From: Squalus acanthias
Lineage: Eukaryota
DNA: 64,000 nucleotides
Reading direction: 5' to 3'
Assembly: GCA_030390025.1 (NCBI GenBank)
Contig: CM059432.1
Span: 60,514,001 to 60,578,000 of the forward strand
The notes under the pieces are model-generated. The model saw only the letters and a program-made list of their open reading frames with translations. It did not search any database and was not told the DNA's origin. Position numbers and translations under genes: made by a program. This document shows positions 3,045 to 64,000 of this stretch, in pieces; within the stretch, counting starts at the first letter, position 1; each line of letters starts with the position of its first letter.

Positions 3045-3994
3045 CTAGTTTAAACCCTTCCCAACAGCACTAACAAACCTCCCCGCGAGAATATTGGTCC
3101 TGGCTCTGTTGAGGTGTAACCCGTCCGGCTTATACAGGTTCCACCTTCCCCAGAAACGGTCCCAATGCCTCAGGAATCTAAATACCTCCCTCCTGTACCA
3201 TCTCTCCAGCCACGCATTCATCTGTTCTATCCTCCTATTCCTATATTCACTAGCACGTGGCACCGGGAGTAATCCGGAGATTACTACCTTTGAGGTCCTG
3301 CTTTTTAATCTCTCTCCTAGCTCCGTAAACCTCTGCCTGCAGGACCTCATCCCTCTTTCTGCCTATGTCGTTAGTACCGATATGGACAACGACCTCTGGC
3401 TGTTCACCCTCCCCCCTCAGAGTGTCCTGCAGCTGCTCTGACATCCTTGACCCTGGCACCAGGCTGGCAACATAACATCCTGGAGTCACGTCTACGGCCG
3501 CAGAAATGCCTGGCTGCTCCCCTAACCTTCGAATCCACTACCACTATTGCATTTTCACTCTTTTTCCTCCCCCCCTGTGCAGCTGAGCCACCCGTGGTGC
3601 CGTGAACTTGACTCTGGCTGCACTCCCCGGAGGAACCATCGCCCTCACCAGTACTCAGAACAGAATACTGGTTGGAGAGTGCGATGCATTCCAGGGACTC
3701 ATGCACTACCTGCCTGGTCCTTCTCTTCTGTCTGGCGGTCACCCATTCCCTCTCTGCCTGCATACTCTTAAGCTGCGGGGTGACCACCTCTAGAAACGTG
3801 CTATCCACGTAACTCTCAGCCTCGCGGATGCACCGCAGTGATTCCAGCCGCCGCTCAAGCTCCGAAACCCGGAGCTCGAGTTGCTGTAGCTGGCGACACT
3901 TCCCGCACATGTGGTTGTCCAGGCTACGCGAAGCGTCCAGGACTTCCCACATGGCACAGGTTGTGCACTCCACGGGACTGAGCTGCCCTGACAT
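3045..3994 (-). pseudogene. CR1 ORF1 (zinc finger/leucine zipper + SGNH esterase), frameshifted
   Basis: CTTCAMW..CGKC zinc finger, LQQLELRVSELERRLESL coiled coil, and esterase motifs VVDSKVRG, PGARV, VVVHIGTNDIG, DGLHLN. Confidence 0.9.
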
Positions 3995-7273: not shown

Positions 7274-9371
7274 CTAGGATTGTGTCTTTTGTCTTTTGCA
7301 CGTGCTTCTACAAGGTGCGATCCCTATGGCTTCAGCAGGCTGCTCACTTCCATGCTGCGACTGCTTTGACACTTTTGGCGGACGTCCTCTGGGTTTTGGA
7401 GCCTGTGAGAGCCCTGCCAAAGACTGCTCGTCCTGCAACTGCGCAGGAGGAAGATTTGGCAATCAGGATCCGAGGCTCTGACTGAGGGGGAGGCAACGGG
7501 GGAGAAGTAGGTGCGCTTTGAGAAGAGCCCCCACTTCCATGTCCCCTGTCAACATCATCCCTCTCACAGGCCACCCGCACTTCCCTGCTAGCAAGGTGCT
7601 GGAGAGCACCTTGCTGCACATCAGTGGGGTGATGAAGGCCCAAGTCTATGTTAATATCCATCCTCGAGATGAGCTCAATGAGTGTCTGCCATCTGTTGTT
7701 CACAGCAAGCATGTTCTTGTTGGACTGGCGCATGTGCTGCTCCATGCAGCTGGCCATCCTTTCCAGATGGTGGTGCTCATGTTGGAGACGGACTCTTCCA
7801 TTCTCTGTACATTTGCACACATCGTGGCTGAAAAAGCTGCCAGAGCCTCATGCAATTGTTGCTGCCCCTCCAAGATCACCCCCTTTCTCGATGGCTCCGA
7901 GGTTTAGCATCTGCATGCAGCTCAGCAGAGCTTGGAGCATCCTGTGCCCTCCGGCAAGGAGTCTCCACTGCTGTCCCTGTCAACACCATCTGCTCTCGGT
8001 CATTTGTGATGTGTGAGACACCAGGTGACAGCATACTCTATCTCGCACAGGACCTACTGAGGTGTGTGTATCTGCGCTGGCTGCGCATGGGTCTGCTGAC
8101 GGTGCACCCTCTGAGGAGTCGTCTTCCTCCTCCGGCTGAACAGTGGGCAGGGGGGTTGGGGGCAGTTGATGGGCCTGTGGGAGAGTAAAGAGATGAATTA
8201 TACGTGTTATGATAAGAATGGGTAATATTACCATTATGCACAGATGACATTTCACTGGCTGCTGACATTAGTCACCATATGAGTGACTGTTGTATGTCAT
8301 GTGGCTGTATGAGATTTAATTCTGTCACCAGGTTGCTGGGAGGTCCCCCTCTCTTCGTCCCCCACCGCCAGCAGCTCTGCAGCTCCAGAGATTTCAAAGG
8401 CGTGCTCCTCTGCTGCTGTCAAATTACATAAGACTGGAGGGCCACCTCTGGTTCTCTGCCTCTCCCTATTGTTCTGGGCTCTCTTCTCCTGCGAGGAGGG
8501 AAAGAAGAGAACTTTGAGTGAGAGTGATGGAATGAGTGTAAGGAATGGATGGGCTACATCTGTAGAGGGTGACTATGAGGGAGTGGTGTGACATTGTCAA
8601 ATCGCCTCCTTCTGTGGTGTTACTTGCTATGATTGCATTAGGATGAAGGTGTCAGTGGTGGTTAGTCAGATGGGGATGTGAGTAGGTACATAGACAGAGA
8701 GGGATGGGTGCACCTGCAAGGTAGGTTGGTGTGAGGAGTGATGTGCAGGGTTAGGCTTGGGAAGGCAGAATGATGGGGTTGGGGTGACACGCACATCAGG
8801 ATGTAGCTGAGTTTTTTTTATTCGTTTTTATGGTATGTGGGCGTCGCTGGCAAGGCCAGTATTTATTGCCCATCCCTAATTGCCCTTGAGAAAGTGGTGG
8901 TGAGCTGCCTTCTTGAACCGCTGCAGACCGTGTGGTGAAGGTACTCCCACAGTGCTGTTAGGTAGGGAGTTCCAGGATTTTGACCCAGCGACGATGAAGG
9001 ATCGGCGATATATTTCCAAGTCAGGGCGGTGTGTGACTTGGAGGGGAACTTGGAGGTGGTGAGGTTCCCATGCACCTACTGCCCTTGTCCTTCTAGGTGG
9101 AAGAGGTCGCGGGTTTGGGAGGCACTGCACTCACCTTTCCTCACCTCATGAGATCATTGAATCTCTTGCGGCACTGGATCCACGTCCTCCTTACGACATC
9201 CCTGCTACTGACCTCCTCTGCAATCTCTGGCCATGCCCTTTTTGTCTCTTTGGATGGTCGTTTTCGTCCATCCCCAGGGAAGAGGACCTCCCTGCGTTCT
9301 CGTACTGCCTGCACCAGCACTTTCAGGGAGGCATCTGCGAATCTTGCCGCTGCCCTCTGTCTTGTCTCCAT
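7274..9371 (-). pseudogene. Harbinger Myb/SANT DNA-binding gene, 3 exons (9371-9135, 8488-8329, 8174-~7274)
   Basis: METRQRAAARFADASLKVLVQAV..WPEIAEEV..RTWIQCRKRFNDL is a Myb/SANT-like domain. GT-AG introns. Basic C-terminus PRGRPPKV. Confidence 0.85.
8813..9127 (-). mobile_element. 3'-terminal fragment of the tRNA-headed LINE family
   Basis: Near-identical to 11645-11955 including the A-tail. Inserted just inside Myb intron 1. Confidence 0.88.
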
Positions 9372-11191: not shown

Positions 11192-11644
11192 CTACAGAAA
11201 ACAGAGTTAGATCAGAATTTGCAATACAAACACAGTAGCCAAGGCTTGACAACATTATCAAATATGAACTGTAATTTTGTATAACATTTTTAAAATGCAA
11301 CTCTTAAAAGGGAAATTGTTTAATTTTGGACAATTTTGTCATATTAAGATATTAGAAAACTAAAATTGATATTTTCACATTTTCAAGTTTGCTCTTTATA
11401 ACCACAAAATTGGAGACACCAGCGGTGGAGCTTCAAACAGCAGGGGAAACAGCGCCAACCTGATTGGAGACACCAGCGTCGACGATTTCCAAAAAAAGCA
11501 TAGTGTGGCATCACAGGACAGCGGGTAAGTGATTGGTTGGTGAGTATTAAGTTTTATTTATCTCTAACCTAGGACAGTGGTTTAAGCTAGGTGCGGGAAA
11601 CTACAAAGTACTGTATTAAATTTATAGCTTAACTAGTTAAACTA

Positions 11645-14600
11645 TTTTTTTATTCGTTTATGGGATCTGGGCATCGCTGGCAAGACCAGCATTTATTGCC
11701 CATCCTAATTGCCCTCGAGAAGGTAGTGGTGAGCCGCCTTCTTGAACCGCTGCAGTCCGTGTGGTGAAGGTACTCCCACAGTGCTGGTAGGGAGGGAGTT
11801 CCAGGATTTTGACCCAGCGACGATGAAGGATCGGCGATATACTTCTAAGTCAGGATGGTGTGTGACTTGGAGGGGAACTTGGAGGTGGTGGTGTTCCATG
11901 CGCCTGCTGCCCTTGTCCTTCTAGGTGGAAGAGGTTGTGGGTTTGGGAGGTGCTGCCGAAGAAGCCTTGGCGAGTTTCTGCAGTGCATCTTGTAGATGGT
12001 ACACACTGTAGCCACGGTACGCCGGCGGTGGAGGGAGTGAATGTTTAAGGTGGTGGATGGGGTGCCAATCAAGCGGGCTGCTTTGTCCCGGATGGTGTCG
12101 AGCTTCTTGAGTTTGTTGGAGCTGCACTCATCCAGGCAAGTGGAGAGTATTCCATCACACTCCTTACTTGTGCCTTCTGGATGGTGGAAAGGCTTTGGGA
12201 AGTCAGGAGGTGAGACACTCGCCGCAGAATACCTAGCCTCTGACCTGCTCTTGTTGCCACAGTATTTATGTGCCTGGTCCAGTTAAGTTTCTGGTCAATG
12301 GTGACCCCCAGGATGTTGATAATGGGGGATACAGCGATGGTAATGCCATTGAATGTCATGGGGAGGTGGTTAGACTCTCGCTTGTTGGAGATAGTCATTG
12401 CCAGGCACTTCTGTGGCACGAATGTTACCTACCACTTATCAGCCCAAGCCTGAACGTCGTCCAGGTCTTGTTGCATGCGGGCATGGACTGCTTCATTATC
12501 TGTGGAATTGTGAATGGCGCTGAACACTGTGCAGTCATCAGCGAACATCCCCATGTTGGAGGGAAGGTCATTGATGAAGCAGCTGAAGATGGTTGGGCCT
12601 AGGACACTGCCCTGAGGAACTCCTGCAGCGATGTCCTGGGGCTGTGATGATTGACCTTCAACCACCACAACCATCATCCTTTGTGCTAGGTATGACTCCA
12701 GCCAGTGGAGCGTTTCCCCCTGATTCCCATTGACTTCAGTTTTACGAGGGCTCCTTGATGCCAGACTCGGTCAAATGCAGCCTTGATGTCAAGGGCAGTC
12801 ACTCTCACCTCACCTCTGGAATTCAGCTCCTTTGTCCATGTTTGAACCAAGGCTGTAATGAGGTCTGGAGCCGAGTGGTCTTGGTGGAACCCAAACTGGG
12901 CATCAGTGAGCAGGTTATTGGTGAGTAAGTGCCGCTTGATAGCACTGTCAATGACACCTTCCATCCCTTTGCTGATGATTGAGAGTAGACTGATGGGGCG
13001 GTAATTGGCCGGGTTGGATTTGTCCTGCTTTTTGTGGACAGGACATACCTGGGCAGTTTTCCACATTGTCGGATAGATGCCAGTGTTGTAATGTACTGGA
13101 ACAGCTTGGCTAGAGGCGTGGCTAGTTCTGGAGCACAAGTCTTCAGCACGATAGCCGGGATGTTGTCGGGGCCCATAGCCTTTGCTGTATCCAGTGCGCT
13201 CAGCCGTTTCTTGATATCACGTGGAGTGAATCGAATTGGCTGAAGACTGGCTTCTGTGATGGCGGGGACCTCGGGAGTAGGCCGATATGGATCATCCACT
13301 CGGCACTTCTGGCTGAAGTTGGTTGCAAATGCTTCAGCCTTGTCTTTTGCACTCATGTACTGGGCTCCACCATCATTGAGGATGGGGGTATTCTTGGAGC
13401 CTCCTCCTCCCGTTAGTTGTTTAATGGTCCACCACCATTCACGACTGGATGTGGCAGGACTGCAGAGCTTTGATCTGATCCGTTGATTCTGGGATCGCTT
13501 AGCCCTGTCTTTAGCATGCTGCTGCCGCTTTTTAGCATGCATGTAGTCCTGTGTTGCAGCTTCCCCAGGTTGGCACCTCATTTTTAGGTATGCCTGGTGC
13601 TGCTCTTGGCATGCTCTTCTACACTCGTTGTTGAACCAGGGTTGGTCCCCTGGCTTGGTGGTAATGGTAGAGTGAGGGATATGCCGGGCCATGAGGTTAC
13701 AGATTGTGGTGGAATACAATTCTGCTGCTGCTGATGTCCCACAGCGCCTCATGGATGCCCAGCTTTGAGCTGCTAGATCTATTCTGAATCTATCCCATTT
13801 AGCACGGTGGTAGTGCCACACAATACGATGGAGGGTGTTCTCAGTGTGAAGACGGGACTTTGTCTCCACAAGGACTGTGCGGTAGTCACTGCTGCCAATG
13901 CTGTCATGGACAGATGCATCTGCGACAGGGAGATTGGTGAGGACGAGGTCAAGTAGGTTTTTCCCTCGTGTTGGTTCATTCACCACCTGTCGCAGGCCCA
14001 GACTGGCAGTTATGTCCTTCAGGACTCGGCCAGCTCGGTCAGTAGTGGTGCTACCGAGCCACTCTTGGTGATGGACATTGAAGTCCCTCACCCAGAGTAC
14101 ATTCTGTGCCCCTGCCACTCTCAGTGCTTCTTCCAAGTTGTGTTCAACATTGAGGAGTACTGATTCATCAGCTGAGGGAGGTAATCAGCAGGAGGTTTCC
14201 TTGCCCATGCTTGACCTGAAGCCATGAGACTTCATGGGGTCCGGAGTCAATGTTGAGGACTCCCAGGGCCACTCCTTCCCGACTTTATACCACTGTGCCA
14301 CCACCCCTGGTGGGTCTGTCCTGCCGGTGGGACTGGACAAACCCAGGGATGATGATGGAGGAGTTTGGGACATTGGCTGAAAGGTATGATTCGGTGAGTA
14401 AGACTATGTCAGGCTGGTGCTTGACTAGTCTATGGGACAGCTCTCCCAATTTTGGCACAAGTCCCCAGATGTTGGTGAGGAGGATTTTGCAGGGTTGACT
14501 GAGCTGGGCTGTTGCTGTGTCTGTAGCCGGTGCCGAGGTTGATGCCGGGTCGTCGTCCGGTTTCATTCTTATTATTTTGTTTCGTAGCGGTTAGTTACAA

Positions 14601-14925
14601 CTGAGTGATTTGCTAGGCCATTTCAGAGGGCAGTTAAGAGTCAACCACATTGCTGTGGGTCTGGAGTCACATATAAGCCAGACCAGGTAAGGACGGCAGA
14701 TTTCCTTCCCTAAAGGACATTAGTGAACCAGATGGGTTTTTACGACAAGCCGATAGTTTCATGATTTCCATTACTGATACTAGCTTTTTATTCCAGATTT
14801 ATTTAATTAACTGAATTTAAATTCCCCAGCTACCATGGTGGGATTTGAACTCACGTCTCTGGATCATTAGTCCAGGCCTCTGGATTACTAGCCCAGTGAC
14901 ATTACCACTACGCTACCGTTCCCGT
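11645..14925 (-). mobile_element. Single-ORF non-LTR retrotransposon (CR1/L2-group RT, exact clade uncertain) with tRNA-derived 5' head and A-tail
   Basis: A broken ORF from ATG 14566 to ~11705 carries APE motifs (TNIWGL, LTESYL, RGGG, DFNVHH, LLDLVLTN) and RT motifs ([32 protein letters not shown]). No ORF1. AATAAA plus A-tail at the 3' end. Confidence 0.9.
14835..14925 (-). promoter_or_regulatory. tRNA-Gln-like head with Pol III A box (14915-14905) and B box (14852-14841)
   Basis: Sense sequence GGGAACGG-TAGCGTAGTGG-TAATGTCA-CTGGGCTAGTAATCCAG-AGGC-CTGGACTAATGATCCAG-AGACGT-GAGTTCAAATCC-CACCATGG. Confidence 0.75.
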
Positions 14926-16503
14926 GAATTTAATATAACTATAAATAATTGTTGAAGAAAGACGTTAACTAATTAAATAAATAAAATAAGGCTAGTCTAG
15001 GGTATGGCAGGGCAGGTTGTGTGTCTGGACTGCAGTATGTGGGAGTTTGTGGATGGCGAGACTGTCCCGAGCAAACATGTCTGCAGGAGATGTCTCCATC
15101 TCGAATCTCTCCGGTTCAGAGTCATTGAGCTGGACTGCGAGTTGGAGACACTCCGACACACAAGGGAGAGGGAGGAATTTCTGGACAGTTTTATCCAGAA
15201 TACAGTCACACCCCAGAGTAAAGCACAGGTTAGGTTCAGGAATGGGAGGGTGTGACTGTTAGGGAGCCGGGTAGCGGGGATTTACGAGAGGTTGAGAAGG
15301 AGATCTCGCAGACACTGGTCCTGTCCAACAGGTACGATGTACTCGCTACCTGTGAGGACAAAGAGAAAGACTGCAGGGAGGACAGCCACAATGCAGACCA
15401 AGGCACCGTGGCTCAGAAGGCTGTCGAAGCGGGGGGAAAGAGCAGAATAGAAATGTGGTAGTAATAGGGGACTCTATAATTAGGGGGATAGATAGTGTCC
15501 TCTGATGCCAAGAACGAGAATCTCGAAGGGTGTGTTGCCTACCCGGTGCCAGGGTAAGGGATAGCTCACGGCGGCTGGAGAGGAACTTGGAAAGGAGTGG
15601 GTAAATCCAGTTGTCGTAGTCCATATTGGAACAAACAACATAGGTAGGAACAGGGAGGAGGTCCAGCTGAAAGAGTTTCAGGAGTTAGGCTCTAAATTAA
15701 AAAGCAGGACCTCAAGGGTAATAATCTCTGGATTATTGCCTGAGCCACGTGCAAATTGGAATAGAAGCAGACAGATCAGGAGAATTAACACGTGGCTAAA
15801 GGGCTGGTGTGGGAAAGAGGGGTTCCTTTCCATGGGACACTGGCACTGGGACAGGAAGGAGCTGTACCAATGGGACGGGCTCCACCTGAACCAGGATGGG
15901 ACCCATGTCCTAGCGGAAGGGTAAATAGGGAGGTGGCAAAGCTCTTTAAACTAGTAAGAAGGGGGGAGGGATCTACAAAAAACGTAAGTACCCTAAATAT
16001 AAAAAAAAACAGGACAAGTGAGCATAGGAAAGAATAAAGTAAGGGAGCACATTGATGGCAAGGGAGCAAATAGAGTTATAGAACAGGAGTCTAAAAAGGT
16101 AGTTAAACATAAAGTGAGAGGAAATCCTATTACAAATGAGTTAAACTGTCTGTACAGCAATGCACACAGTGTCCGTATTAAAACAGGGGAGCTGGAGGCA
16201 ATCGTGCATTGGGAGGAACCAGATATAGTAGGGATTACTGAGACATGGCTACAGAAAAATCAGGACTGTACTTATTAGGGATAACATAATGGCAGTAGAA
16301 AAAAGGGACGTAGATATCAGCAAGATGAAAATTGAATCCATATGGATAGAGATAAAAGGTAATAGAGGATCAGTCACACTAATAGGCGTAGTCTACGGAC
16401 CACCTAATAGTGGAAGAGAGGTGGAGGAAGAAATATACAGACAAATTAAAGAAATGAGTAAAAAACAGAATAATAATCATGGGGGATTTCAACTACCCCA
16501 ATA

Positions 16504-16993: not shown

Positions 16994-19479
16994 TATTAAT
17001 TGGACAGAAGAGGCAGGTAAAAGGGATAAGGGAATGGAGTTCCTACAATGTCTACAGGACTCCTTTCTAACCCGATATGTAAAAAGCCCAACAAAGGAGG
17101 ATTCGATATTGGATCTAGTTATGGGGAATGAGCCAGAGCAGATAAAAGAAGTAAAAGTAGGGGAACATCTAGGCAATAGTGACCATAACATAATACGCTT
17201 TAAGATGATAATAGGGAAGGACATAAGTATGACAAAAGCCAGGTTAATAGATTGGAGAAAAGCTGATTTTGAGGGGCTAAGAATAGAACTTGGGAAGATA
17301 AAATGGGCAACAATATTAGCAAACAACGATGTAGAACGACAATGGGAAATATTTAAAAAGGTGTTCAACAGAGTGCAGGAAAAATATATTCCGCTAAAAG
17401 GAAAGAACAAACTAAACACTAATGAGATTCCATGGATGAATAAAGACAAAAGGGAACAATTGAGGGTAAGGAACGAGGCATACATTAAGTACATAGACAG
17501 CAGAGGAGTGCATGATAAGACAGAATACAAAGGGATTAGGAGAGAAGTCAAAAAAGCAATTTGGAAGGCAAAGAGGAACTATGAAATTAAATTATCAAGG
17601 AACATAAAACAAAATAGTAAAATATTTTACAGGCACATCAATAAAAAAGGAAGGTTGGGATGGGAATAGGGCCATTAAGGGATAGACAGGACAATACCAC
17701 AGGTAACTATAGGGAGATGGCAGAAATATTAAATCATTATTTTGCTTCGGTATTTACCAGGGAGATATAACAGGTGGACATGACATTGGATGATAAAATG
17801 AGTAATGAGATAAGTGCATTTAAAATAAAAAAGGGGATATATTAAATAAACTAATCAAACTCAAAGAGGATAAAACTCCTGGTCCTGATGGATTGCATCC
17901 ATGTATTTTAAAAGAATCTAGGGAAGAGATAGTAGAGGTATTACTACACATATTTAATAAAAGATGTGGTGCCAGAGGACTGGCGGACAGCTAACGTAAT
18001 ACCTATATTTAAGAAGGGGGATAGAACATGTCCAGGAAATTATAGACCAGTCAGCTTAACATCGGTGGTAGGAAAAATAATGGAATCCCAACTGAAGGAG
18101 AGAATAGAAGAACATCTAGAAATGAAAAGTATAATAATGAAGTCAGCATATATTTCAAAAGGGGAAATCTTGTTTGACCAACCTCATTGAATTTTTTGAA
18201 GAAGTAACAGAGAGAGTTGACAATGGTAATGCAGTAGATGTAATTTATCTAGATTTTCAAAAGGCCTTCGATAAGGTACACCATAATAAACTAATGAATA
18301 AGGTCAGAGAATGCGGAGTCAGGGGACAAGTAGCAGAATGGATAGCTAGCTGGCTTCAAGACAGAAAGCAGAGAGTGGGAGTAAAGGGTAGTTATTCACA
18401 ATGGCAGAAGGTGGGTAGTGGTGTTCCACAAGGATCAGTGCTGGGACCACTGCTATTCATAATTTACATTAACAATTTAGACTTTGGAATCAAAAACAAA
18501 ATTTCTAAATTTGCAGATGATACCATATTGGGGGGGGGGATAGTCATTACTGAGGAGGACATTAATAAACTTGCAGAATGGGCAAATAATTGGCAAATGA
18601 AGTTCAACACAGATAAATGTGAGATATTACATTTTGGTAGGAAGAATAGGGAGGTCACTTATCACTTGGAGGGTGCGAGTGTAGGTGGGGTAGAGGAACA
18701 AAGGGATCACGGAGTACAAATACACAAATCACTAAAAGTTGCGCCACAGGTTAGCAAGGCCATAAAAAAAGCAAACCAAGCACTAGGGTTTATTTCTAGA
18801 GGGATAGAATTGTAAAGTAGGGAAGTTATGCTAAACCTGTATCGAACCTTGGTTAGACCTCACTTGGACTACTGCGTACACTTCAGGTCGCCATATTATA
18901 AGAAGGATATAGAGGCACTGGAGAGGGTGCAGAGAAGATTTACAAGGATGATACCAGAAATGCAAGGGTATATATATCAGGAAAGGATGACAAGGCTGGG
19001 TCTCTTTTCTCTTGAAAAAAGAAGGCTGAGGGGTGACCTAATCGAGGTCTTTAAAGTTATGAAAGGTTTTGATAGAGTGGATACAGGGAGAATGCTTCCC
19101 CTTGTGGGGAAGAGCATAACTAGAGGCCATCAATATAAGGTAGTCACCAAGAAATCCATTAGGGAATTCAGAAGAAACTTCTTTACCCAAAGACTGGTGA
19201 GAATGTGGAACTCGCTACCAAAGGGAGTGGTTGAAGCGAATAGTATAGATGCATTTAAGGGGAGGCTGGACAAGCATATGAGGGAGAAGGGAATCGAGGG
19301 TTACGCTGATAGATTTAGATGAAGAAAGATGAGAGGAGGCTCGAGTGGTGCATAAATGCCGGCATTGACTGATTGGGCCGAATGGCCTGTTTCGGTGCCG
19401 TATATCCTATGTAATCCTATGTAACTGAAATTAAGTATCTTCTCCAAACTTTAGATTTTTTTTCTTCACTCCACTCCAC

Positions 19480-20027: not shown

Positions 20028-22490
20028 ATAGGGCAGTAATAGAAGGGGATTTAATCTACCCTAATATTAACTGGGATAGAATCAGTGTAAAGGTATAGAG
20101 GGAGCAGATTCTTAAAATGCATTCAAGAGAAGTTATTTAGCCAATACGTAGCAAGCCCAACAAGACAGGGGACAGTTCTGGACTTAGTTTTAGGGAATGA
20201 AGCTGGGCAGGTGGAAAGGGTATCAGTGGGAGAGCATTTTGGTGGTTGTGATCATAATTCAGTTCAAGTTAGCATAGTTCTGGAAAAGGACAAAGATAGA
20301 CAAGGAGTCAAAGTTTTCAATTGGGGAAATGCCAATTTTACTAAGCAGAGATGTGATTTAGCAAAAGTGGACTAGAAACAGCTACTTGAAGGTAAATCAG
20401 TGTCAGAGCAGCGGGAGGCATTCAAGGAGGAAATAGTGAGGGTTCAGAGCAAATATGTTCCCACAAAGAAAAAGGGTGGGACTCCCAAATCTAGAGCCCC
20501 CTAGATGTCAAGGAGCATACAGGGTAGGATAAGGAAAAAAAGGGAAGCTTTTGTCAGATACCGAGAGCTCAATACTACAGAAAGCCTAGAGAAGTATAGA
20601 AAGTGCAGGGGTGAAATTAAAAAGGAAATTAGGAAAGCAAAGAGAGGGCATGAAAAATACTGGCAAATAAAATCAAGGAAAACCCAAAGATGTTTTATAA
20701 ATACATAATGAGCAAGAGGATAATTAAGGAAAGAGTAGGGCCTATTAGAGATCAAAAAGGTAACCTATGTGTGGAGGCGGAAGACGTGAGTATGGTTCTT
20801 AATGAATACTTTGCGTCTGTCTTCACAGAAGAGAGGGTCGATACAGACATTGTAGTTAAGGAGGAGGATTGTGAAATATTGGATGAGATAAACATAGTGA
20901 GAGAGGAAATATCTTAGCATCTTTGAAAGTAGCTAAATCTCCAGGCCCGGATGAAATGTATCCCAGGCTGTTAAGAGAAGCAAGGGAGGAAATAGCGGAG
21001 GCTCTGACCTTCATTTTCCAATCCTCTCTGGCTACAGGTGTGGTGCCAAAGGACTGGAGGAATGCTAACATTGTACCGTTGTTTAAAAAGGGAGAAAGGG
21101 ATAGACCGAGTAATTACAGCCCAGTCAGCCTAACCATGGTGGTGGGCAAATTATTGGAAAACATTTTTGATGGAAAGTATTAATCGTCATTTATAAAGGC
21201 ACGGATAAATCAAGGACAGTCAGCATGGATTTAAGGGAAGGTCCTGTCAGACAAACTTGGTTGAATTTTTTGAGGAGGTAACAAGGATGGTTGATGAGGG
21301 TAGCATGTTTGATGTAGTTTACATGGATTTTAGCAAGGCTTTTGACAAGGTCCTACATGGCAAATTGGTCAAAAAAGTAAAAGCCCATGGGATCTAGGGG
21401 AAAGTAGCAAGTTGGATCCAAAATTGGCTCAGTGACAAGAAGCAACGACTAATGGCCGACTGGAAGGTTGTTTCCAGTTGTAATCCGCAGGGCTCAGTAC
21501 TGGGTCCCTTGCTTTTTGTGGTATATATCAATGATTTAGACTTCAATGTAGGGGCATGATTAAGACGTTTGCAGATGATACAAAAAGTGGCCGTGTGGTT
21601 GATAGTGAGGAAGAAAGCTGTAGACTGCAGGAAGATATCAATGGACTGGTCAGGTGGGCAGAAAAGTGGCAAATGGAATTCAATCCAGAGAAGTGTGGGG
21701 TAATGCATTTGGGGAGGGCTAACAAGGCAAGGGAATACACAATAAATGGTAGGATACTGAGTAGTGTAGAAGAACAGAGGGACCTTGGAGTGCATGTCCA
21801 CAGATCCCTGAAGGTAGTAGGACAGGTAGATAAGGTGGTTAAGAAGGCATACGGGATACTTTCCTTTATTAGCCAAGGCATGGAATACAAGAGCAGAGAG
21901 GTTATGCTAGAACTGCATAAAACACTAGTTAGGCCACAGCTAGAGTACTGCGTACAGTTCTGGTCACCACATTACAGGAAAGATGTGATTGCACTAAAGC
22001 GGATTCAGAGGAGATTTGCGAGGATGTTGCCAGGACTGAAGAATTTTAGCTTTGAGGAAAGATTGGATAGGCTGGGGTTGTTTTCTTTGGAACAAAGGAG
22101 GCGGAGGGGAGACTTAATTGAGGTGTACAAAATTATGAGGGGCCTAGATGGAGTGGATAGGACGGACCTATTTCCCTTAACAGCGAGATCAATAACCAGG
22201 GGGCATAGATTTAAAGTAATTGGTAGAAAGATTAGAGGGGAGTTGAGAGAATTTTTTTCAGCCAGAGGGCGGTGGGGGTTGCGAACTCACTGCCTGAAAG
22301 GGTGATAGAGGCAGAAACCGCCATCGCATTTACAAAGTGCTTGGATGTGCACTTGAAGTGCTGTGGCCTGCAAGGTTACGGTGCAAGAGCTGGAAACTGG
22401 GATTAGGTTGGATAGCTCTTTTTTGGCCGGCACCAACTCGATGGGCCAAATGGCCTCCTTCTGTACCATAAACCTCTATGATTCTTTGAT
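20028..22490 (+). mobile_element. 5'-truncated CR1 LINE (ORF2)
   Basis: KSPGPDEMYPRLL, FADDTK, RPQLEYCVQFWSPHY. Ends in CTCTATGATTCTTTGAT. Confidence 0.92.
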
Positions 22491-40841: not shown

Positions 40842-43460
40842 TTACATAGGATATACGGCACAGAAATAGGCTATTCGGCCCACCCAGTCCATGCTGGCGT
40901 TTATGCTCCACTCGAGCCTCCTCCCGTCTTTCCTCCTCTAGCTCAGCATGACCCTCTATTCCCTTTTCCCTCATATGCTTATCTAGCCTCTCCTTAAATG
41001 CATCTATACTATTTGCCTCAATCACTCCCTTTGGTAGCGAGTTCCACATTCTCACCACTCTCAGGGTAAAGAAGATCCTCTGAATTCCCTATTTGATTTC
41101 TTGTTGACTATCTTATATTGATGGCCTCTAGTTTTGCTCTTCCCCACAAGTGGAACACTCTCTCTCTCTGTGGGTCTACTCTTTCAAAACCGTTCATAAT
41201 TTTAAAGACCTCCATTAGTCAACCCTCAGCCTTCTCTTTTCAAGAGAAAAATGACCCAGCCTGTTCATCCTTTCCTGATAGGTATAACCTCGTGTTTCTG
41301 GTATCATCCTTGTAAATCTTTTTTGCACCCTTTCCAGTGCCTCTATATCCTTTTTATAATATGGCGATCAGAATTGTACGCAGTACTCCAAGTGTGGTCA
41401 AACCAAGATTCGATACAAGTTTAGCATAATTTCTCTACTTTTCAATTCTATACCTCTAGAAATAAACCCTAGTGCTTGGTTTGCTCTTTCTATGGCCTTG
41501 TTAACCTGTGTCGCTACTTTTAGTGATTTGTGTACTTGTACTCAGAGATCCCTTTGCTCCTCTATCCTACTTAGATTTTTATTTTCCAGGTAATATATGA
41601 CCTCCTTATTTTTCTTACCAAAATGTACTACCTTACACTTATCTGTGTTGAAATTAATTTGCCAATTATATGCCCATTCTGCAAGTTATTAATATATTCT
41701 TGAATTTGTTGCTGTCCTCCTCAGTATTGACTATCCCTCCTAATTTGGTGTCATCTGCAAATTTATAAATTGTGTTTTTGATTCCAAAGTCTAAATCGTT
41801 AATATAAATTTTGAACAACAGTGGTCCCAACACTGATCCTTGTGGGACTACTTTCCACCTTCTGCCACTCCGAGTATCTACCCTTTACCCCTACTCTCTG
41901 ATTTCTGTCTTGAAGCCAGCTAGCAATCCATCCTGCTACTTGTCCCCTGACTCTGCATGCTCTGATCTTACTCATTAATCTATTATGTGGCACCTTATCA
42001 AAGGCCTTTTGAAAATCTAGATAAATTACATCTTCTGCATTATCCTTGTCTACTCTCTCTGTTACCTCTTCAAAGAATTCAATGAGGTTGGTCAAGCAAG
42101 ACTATTCCTTTTGAAATCCTTGCTGACTATTCATTACTATATTTTTGGTTTCTAGATGTTTTTCTAATTTCTCCTTTAGTAGGGATTCCATTATTTTTCC
42201 TATCGCCGATGTTAAGCTGACTGGTCTATAGTTCCCTGGATATGTTCTATCCCCCTTCTTAAATGTAGATATTACGTTAGCTATCCGCTACTCCTGTGGC
42301 ACTCCATCCTTTTCTAACAAATTATTAAATATATGTAATAGTGCCTCTGCTATCTCTCCCCCAGATTCTTTTAAAATGCATGAATGTAATCTGTCCGGAC
42401 CAGGGCTTTATCCTTTTGAGTTTGATTAGTTTATTTAATATTTCTCCAATTTTTATTTTAAATGTAGTTATGTCATTTCTAATCTCATCTTCTGAGGTCA
42501 TATCCACCTAATCTATCTCCCTGGTAAATACTGAAGCAAAGTAATTATTTAATATTTCTGCCATTTCGCCATCGCTGCCTGTGATTTTATTCTTTCAATT
42601 CCTTAGTGACCCTATTCCCATCCCGACTCCTTTCTTTATTTATGTGCCTGTAGAATATTTCACTATTTTGTTTTATGTTCCTTGATAATATAATTTCATA
42701 GTTCCTCTTTGCCTTCCTAATTGTTTTTTTGACTTCTCTCCTAATCTCTTCGTATTCTCCCTTGTCTTGCTCACCCCTGCTGTCCAGGTACTTAGTGTAT
42801 GCCTCTTTCCTCAGCCTCAATTTTTTCTTTGTCTTTATTTATCCATGTGTTATCCATTAATGTTTAGTTTATTCTTGTTTATTAGCGGAACATATTTTTC
42901 CTGGACTCTGTTGAACACCATTTTAAATGTTTCCCATTGCTTCTCAACATCATTGTTTGTCAATATTGTGTCCATTTTATTTTTCCAAAATCAGTTTTTC
43001 TCCAGTCTATTACCCTGGTCTTTGTCATACTTATGACCTTCTCAATTATTATCTTAAACGTATTATTATGGTCACTATTTCCTAAATGTTCCCCTACTTT
43101 TACTTCTCTTATCTCTTCTGATTCATTCCCCATTACTAGATCCAGTAGTGAATCCTCCCTTGTCGGGCTTCTTACCTACTGGGTTAGAAAGGAGTCTTTC
43201 ACACATTGTAGGAACTCCATTCCCTTATCCCCTTTACCTACCTCTTCTGGCCAATTAATTTTGGGATAGTTGAAATCCCCCATGATTATTAATCTATGTT
43301 TTTTACTAATTTCCCTAATTTGTTTGCATATTTCTTCCACCACCTCCCTTCCACTATTAGGTGGTCTATAAACTACCCCTATTAGTGTGATTGATCCCTT
43401 TTATCCCTATCCACATGGATTCTAATTCTGTCTTACTGATAGCTGCATCACCTTTTTCTA
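40842..43460 (-). mobile_element. CR1 LINE ORF2, same family as 11405-19422
   Basis: TNLIEFFEEVTERVD, YLDFQKAFDKVPH, KAKRNYEI, and a CR1 tail at 40842. Confidence 0.92.
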
Positions 43461-47238: not shown

Positions 47239-48565
47239 CATAAGAACATAAGAAATAAGAGCAGGAGTAGGCCATACGGCCCCTCGAGCCCGCTCTGCCA
47301 TTCAATAAGATCATGGCTGATCATCGACCTCAACTCCACTTTCCCGCCCGATCTCCATATCCCTTGATTCCCCTAGAGTCCAAAAATCTATCCATCTCAG
47401 CCTTGAATATACTCAAAGACTCAGCATTCACAGCCCCCTGGATCAGAGAATTCCAAAGATTCACAATCCTCTGAGTGAAGAAATTACTCCTCATCTCAGT
47501 CTTATATGGCCTACCCCTTATCCTGAGACTATGCCCCCTAGTTCTAGACACACCAGCCAGGGGAACAACCTCTCAGCATCTACCCTGTCAATCTCCTTCA
47601 GAATCTTGTATGTTTCAATGAGATCACTTCTGATTCTTCTAAACTCCAGAGAGTATAGGCCAATTCTACACAATCTCTCATCATAGGACAGCCCTCTCAT
47701 CCTAGGAATCAATCTAGTGAACCTTCGTTGCACCGCCTCCAAGGCAAGTATATCCTTCCTTGGATAAGGAGACCAAAACTGTGCACAGTACTCCAGGTGT
47801 GGTCTCATCAAGGCCCTGTACAATTGTAGCAAGACATCGTTACTCTTATACTCCAACCCCCTTGCAATAAAGGCCATTTGCCTTTCTTATTGCTTGCTGT
47901 ACCTGCATGCTAGCTTTCTGTGTTTCTTGCACGAGGACACCCAAATATCTCTGAACACCAACATTTGAAAGTTTCTCACCATTTAAAAAATATTCTGTTT
48001 TTCTAATCTTCCTACCAAAGTGAATAACCTCACATATCCCCACATTATACTCCATCTGCCACCTTACTGCCCACTCACTTAGTCTATCTATAACCCTTTG
48101 CAGACTCTTTGTATTCTCCTCACAGCTTACTGTCCCACCTAGCTTTGTATCATCAGCAAACATGGATACATTACACTCAGTCCCTTCATCTAGGTCATTA
48201 ATATAGATTGTAAATAGCTGAGGCCCCAACAGTGATCCTTGCGGCACCCCACTAGTTACAGCCTGCCAACCAGAAAAAGATCCATTTATCCCTACTCTCT
48301 GTTTTCTGTCTGTTAACCAATCCTCTATCCATGCTGCTATATTACCCCCAACCCCATGAGCCCTAATCTTGTGTAATAACCTTTTATGTGGCACCTTATT
48401 GAATGCCTTTTGGAAATCTAAATATACTACATTCACTGGTTCCCCTTTATCTACCCTGCTAGTTACATCCTCAAAAAACTCTAATAAATTTGTCAAACAC
48501 GATTTCCCTTTCATAAAACCATGTTGACTCTGCCTAATCATGTTATGATTTTCTAAGTGACTTGA
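47239..48565 (-). mobile_element. 5'-truncated CR1 of another family nested in the CR1 above
   Basis: Has its own tail ATAAGAACATAAGAAATA and a 231-aa RT stretch QHGFMKGKSCLTNL..GVPQGSLLGPQLF..FADDTKL. Confidence 0.9.
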
Positions 48566-49904
48566 TATCCACGTAACTGAAGTCCCTCATCCTTGGAATC
48601 ATTCTTCTAAATCTTTTCTGCACCCTCTCTAAGGCCTTGACATCCTTCCTAAGGTGCGGTGTCCAGAATTGGACGCGATACTCCAGTTGAGGCCATACCA
48701 GTGTTTTATAAAGGTTCTTCATAACTTCCTTGCTTCAGTACTCTATGCCTCTATTTATGAAGCCCAGTATCCCGTATGCTATTTTAACCACTGTCTCAAT
48801 CTGCCCTGCTACCTTCCACGATTTGTGCACATAGTCCCCAGGTCTCTCTGTTCATGCACCCCCTCTAAGATTGTACCCTTTAGTTTATATTGCCTCTCCT
48901 CGTTCTTCCTACCAAAATGTATCACTTCACACTTTTCTGCGTTAAATTTCATCTGCCACGTGTCCGCCCATTTCACCAATCTGTCTTTGTCTTCTTGAAG
49001 TCTATCACTATCCTCCTCACTGTTTACTATACTTCCAGGTTATGTGTTATCTGCAGATTTTTAAATTCTGCCCCGTACTCCCAAGTCGAAGTCATTAATA
49101 TATATCAAGAAAAGCGGTGGTCCCAGTACCGACCCCTGTATACCTTCCTCCAGTCCGAAAAACAACCGTTCACCACTACTCTCTGTTTCCTGTCACTTAG
49201 CCAATTTCGTATCCATGCAGCCACTGTCCCTTTTATTCCATGGACTTCAACTTTGCTGGCAAGTCTATAATGTGGCACTTTATCAAACGCCTTTTGGAAG
49301 TCCATATACACCACGTCAACCGCATTGTCCTCATCAACCCTCTCTGTTACCTCATCAAAAAACTCGATCAAGTTAGTTAAACAAGATTTGCCTTTAACAA
49401 ATCCGTGCTGGCTTTCCTTAATTAATCCACACTTGTCCAAGTGACTGTTAACTTTGTCCCTTATTATCGTTTCTAAAAGCTTCCCCACTACCGAGGGTAA
49501 ACTGACTGGCCTGTAGTTGCTGAGTTTATCCTTGCATCCTTTTTTGAAATAGGGTGTAACATTTGCAATTCTTCAGTCCTCTGGCACCACCCCCGTATCT
49601 CAGGAGGATTGGAAGATTATGGCCAGTACCTCTGCGATTTCCTCCTTAACCTCCCTCAGCATCCTAAGATGCATCCCATCTAGTCCTGGTGACTTATCAA
49701 CTTTAAGTTTAGACAGCCTTTCCCGTACCATCTCTTTATCAATTCCTATCTCATCCAGTATCTCCACTACCTTCTCTTTCACTATGACTTTGGCAGCATC
49801 TTCTTCCATGGTGAAGACAGATGCAAAGTACTCATTTAGTACCTCAGCCATGCCCTCTGCCTCCATGCGCAGGTCTCCTTTTTGGTCCCTAATCGGCCCC
49901 ACCC

Positions 49905-52310
49905 CTTTTTTTATTTGTTTATGGGATGTGGGTGTCGCTGGCAAGGCCAGCATTTATTGCCCATCCCTAATTGCCCTTGAAAAGGTGGTGGTGAGCCGCC
50001 TAGGGAATTCCAGGATTTTGACCAAGCGACGATGAAGGATCGGCGATGTACTTCTAAGTCAGGATGGTGTGTGACTTGGAGGGGAACTTGGAGGTGGTGG
50101 TGTTCCCATGTGCCTGCTGCCCTTGTCCTTCTAGGTGGAAGAGGTCACGGGTTTGGGAGGTGCTGCCGAAGAAGCCTTGGCGAGTTGCTGCAGTGCATCT
50201 TGTAGATGGTACACACTGTAGCCACGGTACACCGGTGGTGGAGGGAGTGAATGTTTAAAGTGGTGGGTGGGCTGCCAATCAAGCGGGCTGCTTTGTTCTG
50301 GATGGTGTCGAGCTTCTTGAGTGCTGTTGCAGCTGCACTCATCCAGGCAAGTGGAGAGTATTCCATCACACTCCATACTTGTGCCTTGTAGATGGTGGAA
50401 AGGCTTTGGGGAGTCAGGAGGTGAGACACTCGCCGCAGAATACCTAGCCTCTGACCTGCTCTTGTTGCCACAGTATTTATGTGGCTGGTCCAGTTAAGTT
50501 TCTGGTCAATGGTGACCCCCAGGATGTTGATGGTGGACGATTCAGCGATAGTAATGCCGTTGAATATCAAGTGGAGGTGGTTAGACCCTCGCTTGTTCGA
50601 GATAGTCATTGCCTGGTACTTCTGTGGCGCGAATGTTACCTGCCACTTATCATCCCAAGCCTGAATGTCGTCCAGGTCTTGTTGCATGCTGGCATGGACA
50701 GCTTCATTATCTGAGGAGTTGTGAATGGCGCTGAACACTGTGCAGTCATCAGCGAACATCCCCATTTCTGACCTTATGTTGGAGGGAAGGTCATTGATGA
50801 AGCAGCTGAAGATGGTTGGGCCTAGGACACTGCCCTGAGGAACTCCTGCCGCGATGTCCTGGGGCTGTGATGATTGACCTTCAACCGCCACAACCATCTT
50901 CCTTTGTGCTAGGTATGACTCCAGTCAGTGGAGCGTTTTCCCCTTGATTCCCATTGACTTCAGTTTTACTAGGGCTCCTTGATGCCACACTCGGTCAAAT
51001 GCTGCCTTGATGTCAAGGGCAGTCACTCTCACCTCACCTCTGGAATTCAGCTCCTTTGTCCATGTTTGGACAAAGGTTGTAATGAGGTCGGGAGCCGAGT
51101 GCTCTTGGCGGAACCCAAACTGGGCATCAGTGAGCAGGTTATTGGTGAGTAAGTGCCGCTTGATAGCACTGTCGATGACACTTTCCATCACTTTGCTGAT
51201 GATTGAGAGTAGACTGATGGGGCGGTAATTGGCCGGGTTGGATTTGTCCTGCTTTTTGTGGACAGGACATATCTGGGCAGTTTTCCACATTGTGGGATAG
51301 ATGCCAGTGTTGTGGCTTTACTGGAACAGCTTGGTTAGAGGCACGGCTAGTTCTGGAGCGCGTCTTCAGCACAATAGCCGGGATGTTGTCGGGGCCCATA
51401 GCCTTTGCTGTATCCAGTGCGTTCAGCCGTTTCTTGATATCACGTGGAGTGAATCGAATTGGCTGAAGTCTGGCATCTGTGATGGTGGGGACCGCAGGAG
51501 TAGGCCGATATGGACTTCGTCTCCACAATGACTGTGCCGTGGTCACTGCTACCAATGCTGTCATGGACAGATGCATCTGCGACAGGTAGATTTGTGAGGA
51601 CGAAGTCAAGTAGGATTTTCCCCTCATGTTGGTTCTCTCGCCACCTGTCGCAGGCCCAGACTGGCAGTTATGTCCTTCAGGACTCGGCCACCTCGGTCAG
51701 TTGTGGTGCTACTGAGCCACTCTTGGTGATGGACATTGAAGTACCCCACCCAGAGTACATTCTGTGCCCTTGCTACTCTCAGTCCTTCTTCCAAGTGGTG
51801 TTCAACATGTCGGAGTACTGATTCATCAGCTGAGGGAGGGCGGTAGGTGGTAATCAGCAGGAGGTTTCCTTGCCCATGCTTGACCTGAAGCCATGAGACT
51901 TCATGGGGTCCGGAGTCAATGTTGAGGACTCCCAGAGCCACTCCTTCCCGACTGTATACCACTGTGCAGCCACCCCTGGTGGGTCTGTCCTGTTGGTGCG
52001 ACTGGACATACCCAGGGATGGAGGAGTTTGGGATATTGGCTGAAAGGTATGATTCTGTTAGTATGACTATGTCAGGCTGTTGCTTAACAGTCTGTGGGAC
52101 AGCTCTCCCAATTTTGGCACAAGTACCCAGATGTTGGTGAGGAGGACTTTGCAGTGTCAACTGGGTTGGGTGTGCCGATGCCGAGGTCGATGCCGGGTGG
52201 TCCGTCCATTTTTATTCTTATGATTGTGTTTCGTAACGGTTTGTTACAACTGAGTGGCTTGCTAGGCCATTTCAGAGGGCAGTTAAGAGTCATCCACATT
52301 GCTGTGGGTC
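49905..52310 (-). mobile_element. Second copy of the tRNA-headed single-ORF LINE (5'-truncated, internal deletions)
   Basis: Colinear with 11645-14661. About 570 bp is deleted at ~51512, and a small deletion lies at ~50000. Confidence 0.9.
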
Positions 52311-52807
52311 TTACTACCCCTTTACTGTTTCTATGCCTATAGAAGACTTTTGGATTATCTATATCTTTCCCACTAGTTGGTAGCCCATAGAATACACCTA
52401 GTAGTGTAATGGCACCTCTATTATTTCTTAACTCTAACCAAATAGATTCTGTCCTTGACCCCTCCAGGACATCCTCTCTCTCCAGCACTGTAACATTCTC
52501 CTTAACCAATACTGCCACACCACCTCCTTTCTTTCCTTCCCTATCTTTCCTGAACACCTTATATCCAGGAATATTTAAAACCCAATCCTGCCCTTTTTTG
52601 AGCCGGGTCTCTGTTATCGCCACAACATCATATTCCCATTTGGCTATTTACACCTGCAGCTCACCAACCTTATTTACCATGCCTTACACACATGCACTGT
52701 AAACCTGTCTTAGACCTTCTTGTACTCTCTCTTAGTCTGACCCTACCTAATTCCTTACTATTTCTTACTCTTGTGCTATCTGTCTCTCCCCATCCTTTAC
52801 GCACTTT

Positions 52808-54521: not shown

Positions 54522-54774
54522 TAAGAACCTTTATCTCTGGCCACTTCTCTCGCTCTCTTAGTTAAAGTCTTTATTCACCATTATTTATAGTTATGTTAAT
54601 TAGTTTTTCTAGTTAAGTTAGAGAGAATAAAACGCTAATACTCACCCACCAATCACCTACCTGCTGTCCTGTGACTTCACTCCTTGATTTTGCTGTTCTT
54701 TTGGAATTCGGCGGATTTGTATCCGGTGCTGCCGACTCCTTCCAGGTCCAGACCCTTCCAGACCCCCCCCCCTT

Positions 54775-63318: not shown

Positions 63319-64000
63319 TAAGCATATGAGGGAGAAGGGAATAGAAGTTATGCTGATAGAGTTAGATGAGGAAGGATGCGGGGAGGCTTGAGTAGAGCAT
63401 ATGAGGGTGAGGAATTTAATGTAATTAATATAATTAAAAGCCGACAAATCCCCTGCACCTGACAGCCTACATCCTAGGGTTCTAAAAGAGGTGGCTGAAG
63501 AGATGGTGGATGCATTGGTTTTGATCTTCCAAAATTCCCTAGATTCTAGAACGGTCCCAGCGGATTGGAAGGTTGCAAATGTAACACCGCTATTCAAGAA
63601 GGAGGGAGAGAGGAAACATGGAACTACAGGCCAGTTAGCCTGACATCAGTTGTCAGCGAAAATGCTGGAATCCATTGTTAAGGAAGTGGTATCAGGGGAC
63701 TTAGAAAATCATAACATGATTAGACAGAGTCAACATGGTTTTATGAAAGGGAAACAGTGTTTGACAAATTTATTAGAGTTTTTTGAGGATGTAACTAGCA
63801 GGGTAGATAAAGGGAAACCAGTGGATTAGTATATTTGGATTTCCAAAAGACATTCGATAAGGTGCCACATAAAAGGTTATTACACAAGATTAGGGCTCAT
63901 GGGGTTGGGGGTAATATAGTAGCATGGATAGAGGATTGGTTAACGGACAGAAAACAGAGAGTAGGGATAAACGGATCTTTTTCAGGTTGACGGACTGTAA
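63318..64000 (+). mobile_element. CR1 fragments (short 3' piece, then RT running off the window end)
   Basis: DKSPAPDSLHPRVLKE, DWKVANVTPLFK, QHGFMKGKQCLTNL. Confidence 0.9.

Follow-up and report, generated by a model that had tools for sequence, protein, structure and literature searches.

LINEs (long interspersed nuclear elements) are, in the textbook division, coding transcripts of RNA polymerase II (Pol II), and SINEs (short interspersed nuclear elements) are non-coding transcripts of RNA polymerase III (Pol III). We analyzed an element that joins a SINE-type head to a LINE-type open reading frame (ORF). It lies in a 64,000-nt stretch of the Squalus acanthias genome (assembly GCA_030390025.1, contig CM059432.1, positions 60,514,001 to 60,578,000 of the forward strand), hereafter the window. 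On the minus strand of the window, from 14923 to 11645, the element consists of a tRNA-derived head, a leader, a broken frame for an apurinic/apyrimidinic-type endonuclease (APE) and a reverse transcriptase (RT), and a tail.

The published record describes LINEs as Pol II transcripts (PMC5786205, PMC10886601), and one review states that SINEs cannot encode protein (PMC5786205). For the 5′ regions of LINEs, another speaks of a "Pol II (or pol III)" promoter and gives no detail (PMC3894237). CR1 and L2 elements with a single ORF are already known (PMC6740152, PMC4120745, 10.1101/788562), so that a single ORF without ORF1 is not new in itself for the CR1 group (PMC6740152), and a CR1-Zenon-like class has been reported from the whale shark genome (10.1101/443036). 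The lepidopteran Zenon LINEs share with our family a CR1-group APE-RT and an A tail, and lepidopteran CR1 elements are reported to have one ORF (PMC6740152). Like our family with the short forms described below, Zenon gave rise more than once to short derivatives with internal deletions; its deletion derivative Persaeus is described without tRNA, 5S or 7SL homology and without a Pol III promoter (PMC6740152), whereas both the long and the short forms of our family carry A and B boxes.

Heads derived from small RNA genes are found on the crocodilian Tx1-Mar LINEs Tx1-2_Crp, Tx1-2B_Crp, Tx1-4_AMi and Tx1-11_Crp, whose U1/U2 heads also occur on short partners named SINEU (PMC4494074). U1 and U2 are Pol II genes with upstream promoters, and these LINEs belong to the Tx1 clade, in contrast to the tRNA head of our CR1-group family; internal oligo-T excluded Pol III for most SINEU families (PMC4494074). 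RTE-1_DAn and related elements, of the RTE clade, are LINEs with a tRNA-like stretch to which many SINE2 elements match, a likeness conveyed by a single sentence that gives neither the position of the stretch nor boxes or transcription (PMC5786205). Bov-tA, SINE2_Gav, SINE2-1_EC and CoeSINE4 combine a tRNA head, a middle part and a LINE 3′ tail, as do the short forms of our family. Such bipartite-LINE SINEs are non-coding, and their presumed origin is a deletion followed by capture of the head (PMC5786205), whereas here the head sits on a full-length coding element and the short forms show many junctions. The tRNA-headed SINEs of cartilaginous fishes include SacSINE1, with a Deu domain and an L2-type tail, and HE1, with a V domain and the partner HER1 (PMC5499810, PMC3747384). 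Identity of our leader with SacSINE1/Deu was considered and dropped because SacSINE1 is described with an L2 tail (PMC5499810), a decision by description and not by sequence.

Neither the supplements of PMC7245038 nor those of PMC5786205 contained any of three motifs from the window, and two motifs did not occur in one supplement of PMC4824008. We found no description of the family, or of any Pol III-driven coding LINE, in a largely open literature that included PMC11481361 and PMC10294476, with Repbase and Dfam outside the comparison. Among the features of tRNA-derived SINEs, the family has the 5′ head with A and B boxes and the lack of internal TTTT, while "short, non-coding" applies to its short forms alone. 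We take SacSINE1 and HE1, set apart by their descriptions, to differ from this short form. The features new in the family are a sense strand without TTTT and a reading frame with no AUG before the endonuclease.

Head, leader, ORF and tail transpose as one unit

The head spans 14829 to 14923 on the minus strand, as delimited by ARAGORN, Rfam and the starts of 68 copies; its 5′ end lies at 14923, possibly 1 to 2 nt further upstream. ARAGORN called a tRNA at 14829 to 14901, and the Rfam tRNA model matched 14837 to 14916 with 22.3 bits (E = 0.046), below the gathering score of 29 bits. As the score stayed under the family threshold, which it did in both copies tested, the head is tRNA-like and not a tRNA gene. 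The match in the window copy covers model positions 7 to 64, omits the acceptor stem and contains an insertion of 22 nt, and apart from this weak tRNA match the Rfam scan returned nothing but chance matches. The A box of a type-2 Pol III promoter was placed at 14905 to 14915 (+9 to +19) from its sequence and position, and the B box at 14842 to 14850 from its sequence and the Rfam T-arm alignment; both were judged against the general consensus of such boxes. The boxes, rather than the cloverleaf, are the clearly retained part of the head. Divergence in the B box was 1.1%, compared with 2.6 to 3.4% elsewhere, a figure that we set aside as evidence because many copies had been chosen on the head.

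The 3.7-Gb host genome was searched for copies, with exact-pattern counts serving as floors and not as copy numbers. The exact head pattern gave 5,480 matches, the exact leader-to-ORF junction 917 and the exact leader-to-tail junction 435, while control patterns gave 0. When a query made of head, leader and ORF start was used, the best 40 of 7,314 candidates were scored, and 39 besides the window copy matched at 94 to 95%. All 29 other loci fetched began within 13 nt of the query start and had unrelated flanks, and 20 of them continued to the end of the fetched stretch (~1.9 kb). With the whole element as the query, 5 of 29 other long loci ran unbroken from head to tail, the remainder being 5′-truncated or interrupted. 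An earlier note on this DNA had named attachment of the head in this copy only as one result that would overturn its reading. The head proved to be attached in many copies with the same start and unrelated flanks, which rules out a chance SINE insertion confined to the window copy.

Heads alone were also used as the query, to avoid choosing copies by their junction. Among 20 heads fetched from the best-scoring 40, 17 entered the endonuclease region and 3 stopped right after the leader. Sampling by position (every fifth of the first 100 exact matches listed, all on one contig) yielded 10 of 20 heads that entered the endonuclease region, 7 short forms made of head, leader and tail, and 3 that broke off. 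The starts of 68 copies fell at +1 to +3, and the bases upstream were near random but for an A at −2 in 38 of the 68. Variants in the head were linked to variants at the start of the ORF (four site pairs, Fisher P between 7e-5 and 4e-3), indicating that at least two subfamilies carried the head.

The 30 long copies had neither an alternative 5′ end nor an ORF1 upstream in common, which counts against the concern that consensus copies might reach up to an ORF1 or a Pol II promoter. Their 300-nt upstream flanks gave five matches, all short and none abutting the element in both partners. Dispersed copies had a common 3′ end, an A tail and variable 5′ truncation. By eye, no consistent target site duplication was seen in 24 listed copies, with a possible 7-nt one in L033. 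Taken together, the comparisons show that head, leader, ORF and tail transpose as one unit, and they support the combination of SINE head and LINE ORF as the architecture of a transposing, high-copy family.

Several peculiarities of individual copies were recorded along the way. L065 and L066, on one contig, are near-identical and interrupted directly after the leader by the same foreign sequence, likely a segmental duplication. Many copies in the set L061 to L080 carry small internal deletions of 10 to 60 nt, often between short direct repeats and, by eye, in excess of what 2 to 4% divergence would lead one to expect. At three loci (L025, L030 and L078) the head is directly adjoined by an inverted fragment of this family. 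The flank directly upstream of the head in the window (14930 to 14972) matches 54558 to 54599 over 42 nt at 88%, so that the element adjoins another repeat.

Coding frame, start codon and short forms

A majority sequence was derived from 25 of the 30 long loci, those aligned over more than 2.8 kb. It measures 3,313 nt and contains one stop-free frame of 973 codons and no second long frame; the copies differ from it by 1.9 to 3.9%. The ratio of amino-acid-changing to silent variants (pN/pS) was 0.99, i.e., neutral, for private variants, 0.75 for doubletons, 0.53 for variants in at least three copies and 0.35 for those in at least 15% of copies, this last class consisting of 20 sites only. That variants common to several copies are poor in amino-acid changes indicates translation of the frame at a time when masters with the head were active, and the pattern supports purifying selection on the frame during the spread of the family. 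In 8 of 61 scored copies the 736-aa stretch searched was free of stops, and the longest open frame among these was 874 aa.

Older material was also present. In a fragment of 79% identity the differences were spread 14/14/14 over the codon positions, a sign of decay that is uninformative on selection. Older 3′ fragments of 77 to 84% identity (L044:4040-4575 and 40 scored genome matches) possibly represent an earlier subfamily. Public gene models contain pieces of the ORF as well. The only named species among the close protein matches were Heptranchias perlo, with an aldo-keto reductase (P0013; 87% across 29% of the query), and Mobula birostris, with an uncharacterised protein (P0117; 79% across 16% of the query). 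These matches are probably annotation artefacts, and they place close relatives of the family in a shark and a ray.

The first methionine of the majority frame is residue 287, past the endonuclease, and none of the nine AUGs within the first 420 nt is in frame. The earlier note had described a leader of ~350 nt closed by an AUG. The leader is present, but its AUG (14563 to 14565, minus strand) is in frame with the endonuclease only in the window copy, as a product of small private deletions, and in 3 of the 47 other copies in which both markers are present. Being out of frame in the other 44, it was ruled out as the start codon. In most of the family it opens an upstream frame of 48 codons, and it is absent from the second subfamily. 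Among related frames from metagenomes (46 examined, 30 scorable), 29 of 30 have a methionine ahead of the endonuclease motif. Lacking an in-frame AUG before the endonuclease, the family would need non-canonical initiation, and we infer such initiation from the sequence. Two relatives from other hosts, L102 and L114, have an NPGP motif immediately ahead of the endonuclease, like the single-ORF LINEs that bear 2A (PMC3894237); the motif is absent from our family.

The missing start codon had been overlooked before, as had the production of short SINE-like forms. All seven short forms sampled (L163, L164, L167, L168, L169, L177 and L179) differ in their junctions, which join leader positions ~300 to 345 (424 in one) to tail positions ~3200 to 3255 (3081 in one). 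Among 100 leader-to-tail junctions listed, lengths lay between 46 and 74 nt, and a single form of 52 nt was the commonest. This pattern suggests repeated deletion at short microhomology in addition to true SINE subfamilies. One short form (L057:838-1130) is only ~76% identical in head and leader and has the same kind of tail, indicating that the short form is old. As for the origin of the head, the LINE may have acquired the complete front of an existing SINE, or its own 5′ untranslated region (UTR) may have received a bare tRNA.

The remaining parts of the window copy, all on the minus strand, largely bear out the earlier description. Besides the head with its A and B boxes, upheld by the ARAGORN call, the sub-threshold Rfam match and the location of both boxes, it had specified a leader without an internal A-tail, and none lies between head and ORF. 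The non-coding leader or body, common to long and short forms and a candidate translation-initiation element, extends from 14595 to 14828. The single APE-RT frame (11705 to 14594) is broken by stops and frameshifts, and Pfam domains were recognized in this copy and two sister copies (endonuclease PF14529/PF03372 in the window copy and L049, RT PF00078 in L050). The short 3′ UTR with AATAAA and a 7-nt A tail occupies 11645 to 11704; it is the presumed RT recognition tail and is also found on the short forms. One AATAAA lies at 11692 to 11697, and another merges with the terminal A run at 11645 to 11656. The absence of an ORF1 likewise held, both in the majority and upstream of the 30 long copies. 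A second copy, reported as sharing the leader and lacking the head, does both, its coordinates needing correction by one or two bases: it runs from 49906 to 52311, is 89 to 91% identical, is 5′-truncated within the leader, which it has in common up to 14662, and lacks ~563 nt internally. A third copy (8813 to 9128) is a 3′ end alone, 316 nt long and 91% identical.

Terminators, polymerase and rival explanations

The Pol III terminator TTTT does not occur in the sense strand of the 3,313-nt majority or in 20 of the 25 copies, while the same strand holds 14 internal AAAA runs. This absence had a P value of 0.017 to 0.019 against base shuffles and of 0.031 against recoding with the base frequencies of the element. 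TTT occurred 7 times against 19.5 expected, a count matched by none of 1,000 base shuffles (P = 0.13 with dinucleotide shuffles), and TT stood at 0.71 of expectation. The TT deficit is absorbed by the own-codon and dinucleotide nulls and may itself be a footprint of selection or of another bias. None of 63 related frames from other hosts had zero TTTT (median observed/expected, 1.24); all 63 are richer in T (0.215 to 0.36, versus 0.188) and hence unmatched as controls. TTTT runs are regular in the other RT-encoding repeats of the window, unlike in our family. On TTTT the evidence is suggestive and falls short of being decisive. The earlier note had read the element as a SINE-LINE hybrid expressing its own RT from a Pol III promoter; the transposing unit and the purifying selection on its ORF stand, and Pol III transcription is what the intact boxes, the fixed start and the absence of TTTT would predict.

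With a probability that we put at about 0.58, the window element is a decayed copy of a once-autonomous, single-ORF Zenon-like LINE that was transcribed by Pol III from its tRNA-type head, was translated by non-AUG, cap-independent initiation and gave rise to SINE-like deletion offspring. In such an element TFIIIC would bind the A and B boxes and Pol III would start at the head, cross 3.3 kb without meeting a terminator and stop at the first flanking T run; for the window copy, the strand of the element shows its first TTTT at 11497, ~150 nt beyond the tail. The uncapped RNA would be translated by cap-independent initiation at a non-AUG codon, using the leader, and the APE-RT protein would bind the 3′ tail and insert the element by target-primed reverse transcription. 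Every full-length insertion would bring its own promoter, and an internal deletion that retains promoter and tail would create a SINE in one step. The stronger version, a cartilaginous-fish LINE wholly committed to the SINE way of life, with a 3.3-kb Pol III mRNA, purged terminators, cap- and AUG-less translation via the leader and SINE birth by one-step deletion, is put forward tentatively, at somewhat less than even odds.

A number of observations weigh against a Pol III-driven, autonomous LINE. The absence of TTTT did not reach significance when the comparison was with dinucleotide shuffles (P = 0.22) or with shuffles of the element's own codons (P = 0.16), C runs were also low under the dinucleotide null (P = 0.02 to 0.03), and the control frames differ in T content. 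An AATAAA lies near the tail, as in Pol II LINEs, and known Pol III retroelements are short, SINEs measuring 100 to 700 bp and terminal-repeat retrotransposons in miniature up to ~1.3 kb (PMC10886601). The strongest selection class is small, and none of the 61 scored copies and 30 long loci, all best-scoring copies, had the whole frame open. The leader folded no better than shuffled sequences (z = −0.43). Finally, ARAGORN found a tRNA in none of the 51 loci scanned among 80 related metagenome loci, which leaves the arrangement without outside support beyond close relatives.

Some of these points would sit well with synthesis of the coding RNA by Pol II, from a promoter in the leader or by host read-through, the head being a passenger or Pol III making only template RNA and short forms; in a two-polymerase form, rare capped transcripts would supply the protein. 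Such an account would explain the AATAAA ahead of the A tail and agrees with the description of LINEs as Pol II transcripts (PMC5786205, PMC10886601). The U1/U2 heads of crocodilian Tx1 elements hold no internal promoter, so that a small-RNA head need not be one (PMC4494074), lepidopteran Zenon and Persaeus spread without a Pol III head (PMC6740152), and the TTTT gap fails two null models. A cap would nevertheless be no cure for the missing start codon, since a scanning ribosome would meet all nine out-of-frame AUGs, and a mere passenger fits poorly with a 5′ end fixed at tRNA +1 in 68 copies and a head kept through at least two subfamilies. We regard this explanation as unlikely, though as one to be taken seriously.

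The missing AUG can also be read as a sign of a non-autonomous element, a SINE of great length that took in a LINE ORF, could not be translated and depended for its movement in trans on a sister LINE that escaped notice. None of the copies seen was fully intact, and a rarer driver family could escape an examination of the best-scoring copies only. Against this stand the majority frame, open over 973 codons, the lack of any alternative 5′ end common to the 30 long copies, and the paucity of amino-acid changes among common variants, which calls for translation in cis or by members of the family itself; we find this scenario improbable. A head acting as a processing signal, with the element co-transcribed with a host RNA and cut by RNase P at tRNA +1, compared with the ribozymes of R2 and some RTE elements, is more improbable still. 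The element does start where the 5′ end of a mature tRNA would lie, several single-ORF clades are known to self-cleave at the 5′ end (PMC5786205), and an uncapped RNA would fit the missing AUG. Against this, the tRNA match of the window copy lacks an acceptor stem and has a 22-nt insertion, the score is below threshold in both copies tested, and it is the promoter boxes, not the cloverleaf, that are clearly kept.

Relatives, neighboring repeats and biological meaning

The phylogenetic position of the family was assessed mainly with a 27-row tree rooted on RNase H-bearing LINEs, supplemented by a quick tree of 61 rows. In the 27-row tree the family fell into a group (95/98) with five metagenome proteins, the best of them 45% identical, and outside a group (100/100) holding two bird CR1 proteins; by this placement it would not be vertebrate CR1 proper. 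A Colias protein, P0031, which we take to be Zenon-like, did not join the family in this tree, with a similar result in the quick tree, and it has a diagnostic-looking motif in common with the family. We therefore call the family Zenon-like within the wider CR1 group, on trees that contain no labelled Zenon reference.

Of 24 sequencing runs listed, 14, with six organism labels among them, contained half or more of the sampled words, ~30% of the query being flank; four runs, from metagenomes or without a label, whose word share did not exceed 0.05 were ignored. The two runs taken to be RNA consist of contigs, which carry no information on start, strand or level. Contigs of organisms E and F placed on one full-length copy covered 30 of 30 bins and included leader-to-tail joints, and coverage past the head dropped 16-fold and 165-fold, respectively. 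No contig of either organism spans the element, so that any link between head and ORF there would be indirect. For organism H the raw DNA reads matched only partially (162 in number, 92% of them continuing into unlike sequence, and none on the last head bin), and those of organism I gave 0 matches to the full-length copy. Upstream of 63 long related frames no B-box motif was found, in contigs many of which may be cut short.

The window holds other decayed RT-encoding repeats, at 401 to 2513, 17067 to 19280, 20097 to 22134, 41302 to 43400, 47602 to 49920 and 63434 to 63984. These repeats are 22 to 44% identical in protein, and one of them joined bird CR1 in the quick tree. Between the family and other RT repeats of the window, identity was 25 to 37%.

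If the proposed mechanism is true, a high-copy vertebrate family breaks the division between LINEs made by Pol II and SINEs made by Pol III. It would provide a natural 3.3-kb Pol III mRNA together with a natural route for translating it, and a second route to SINE birth, in which the head comes first and the deletion follows. The leader would then be a SINE "body" with a testable original function, translation initiation, where SINE bodies are otherwise unexplained.

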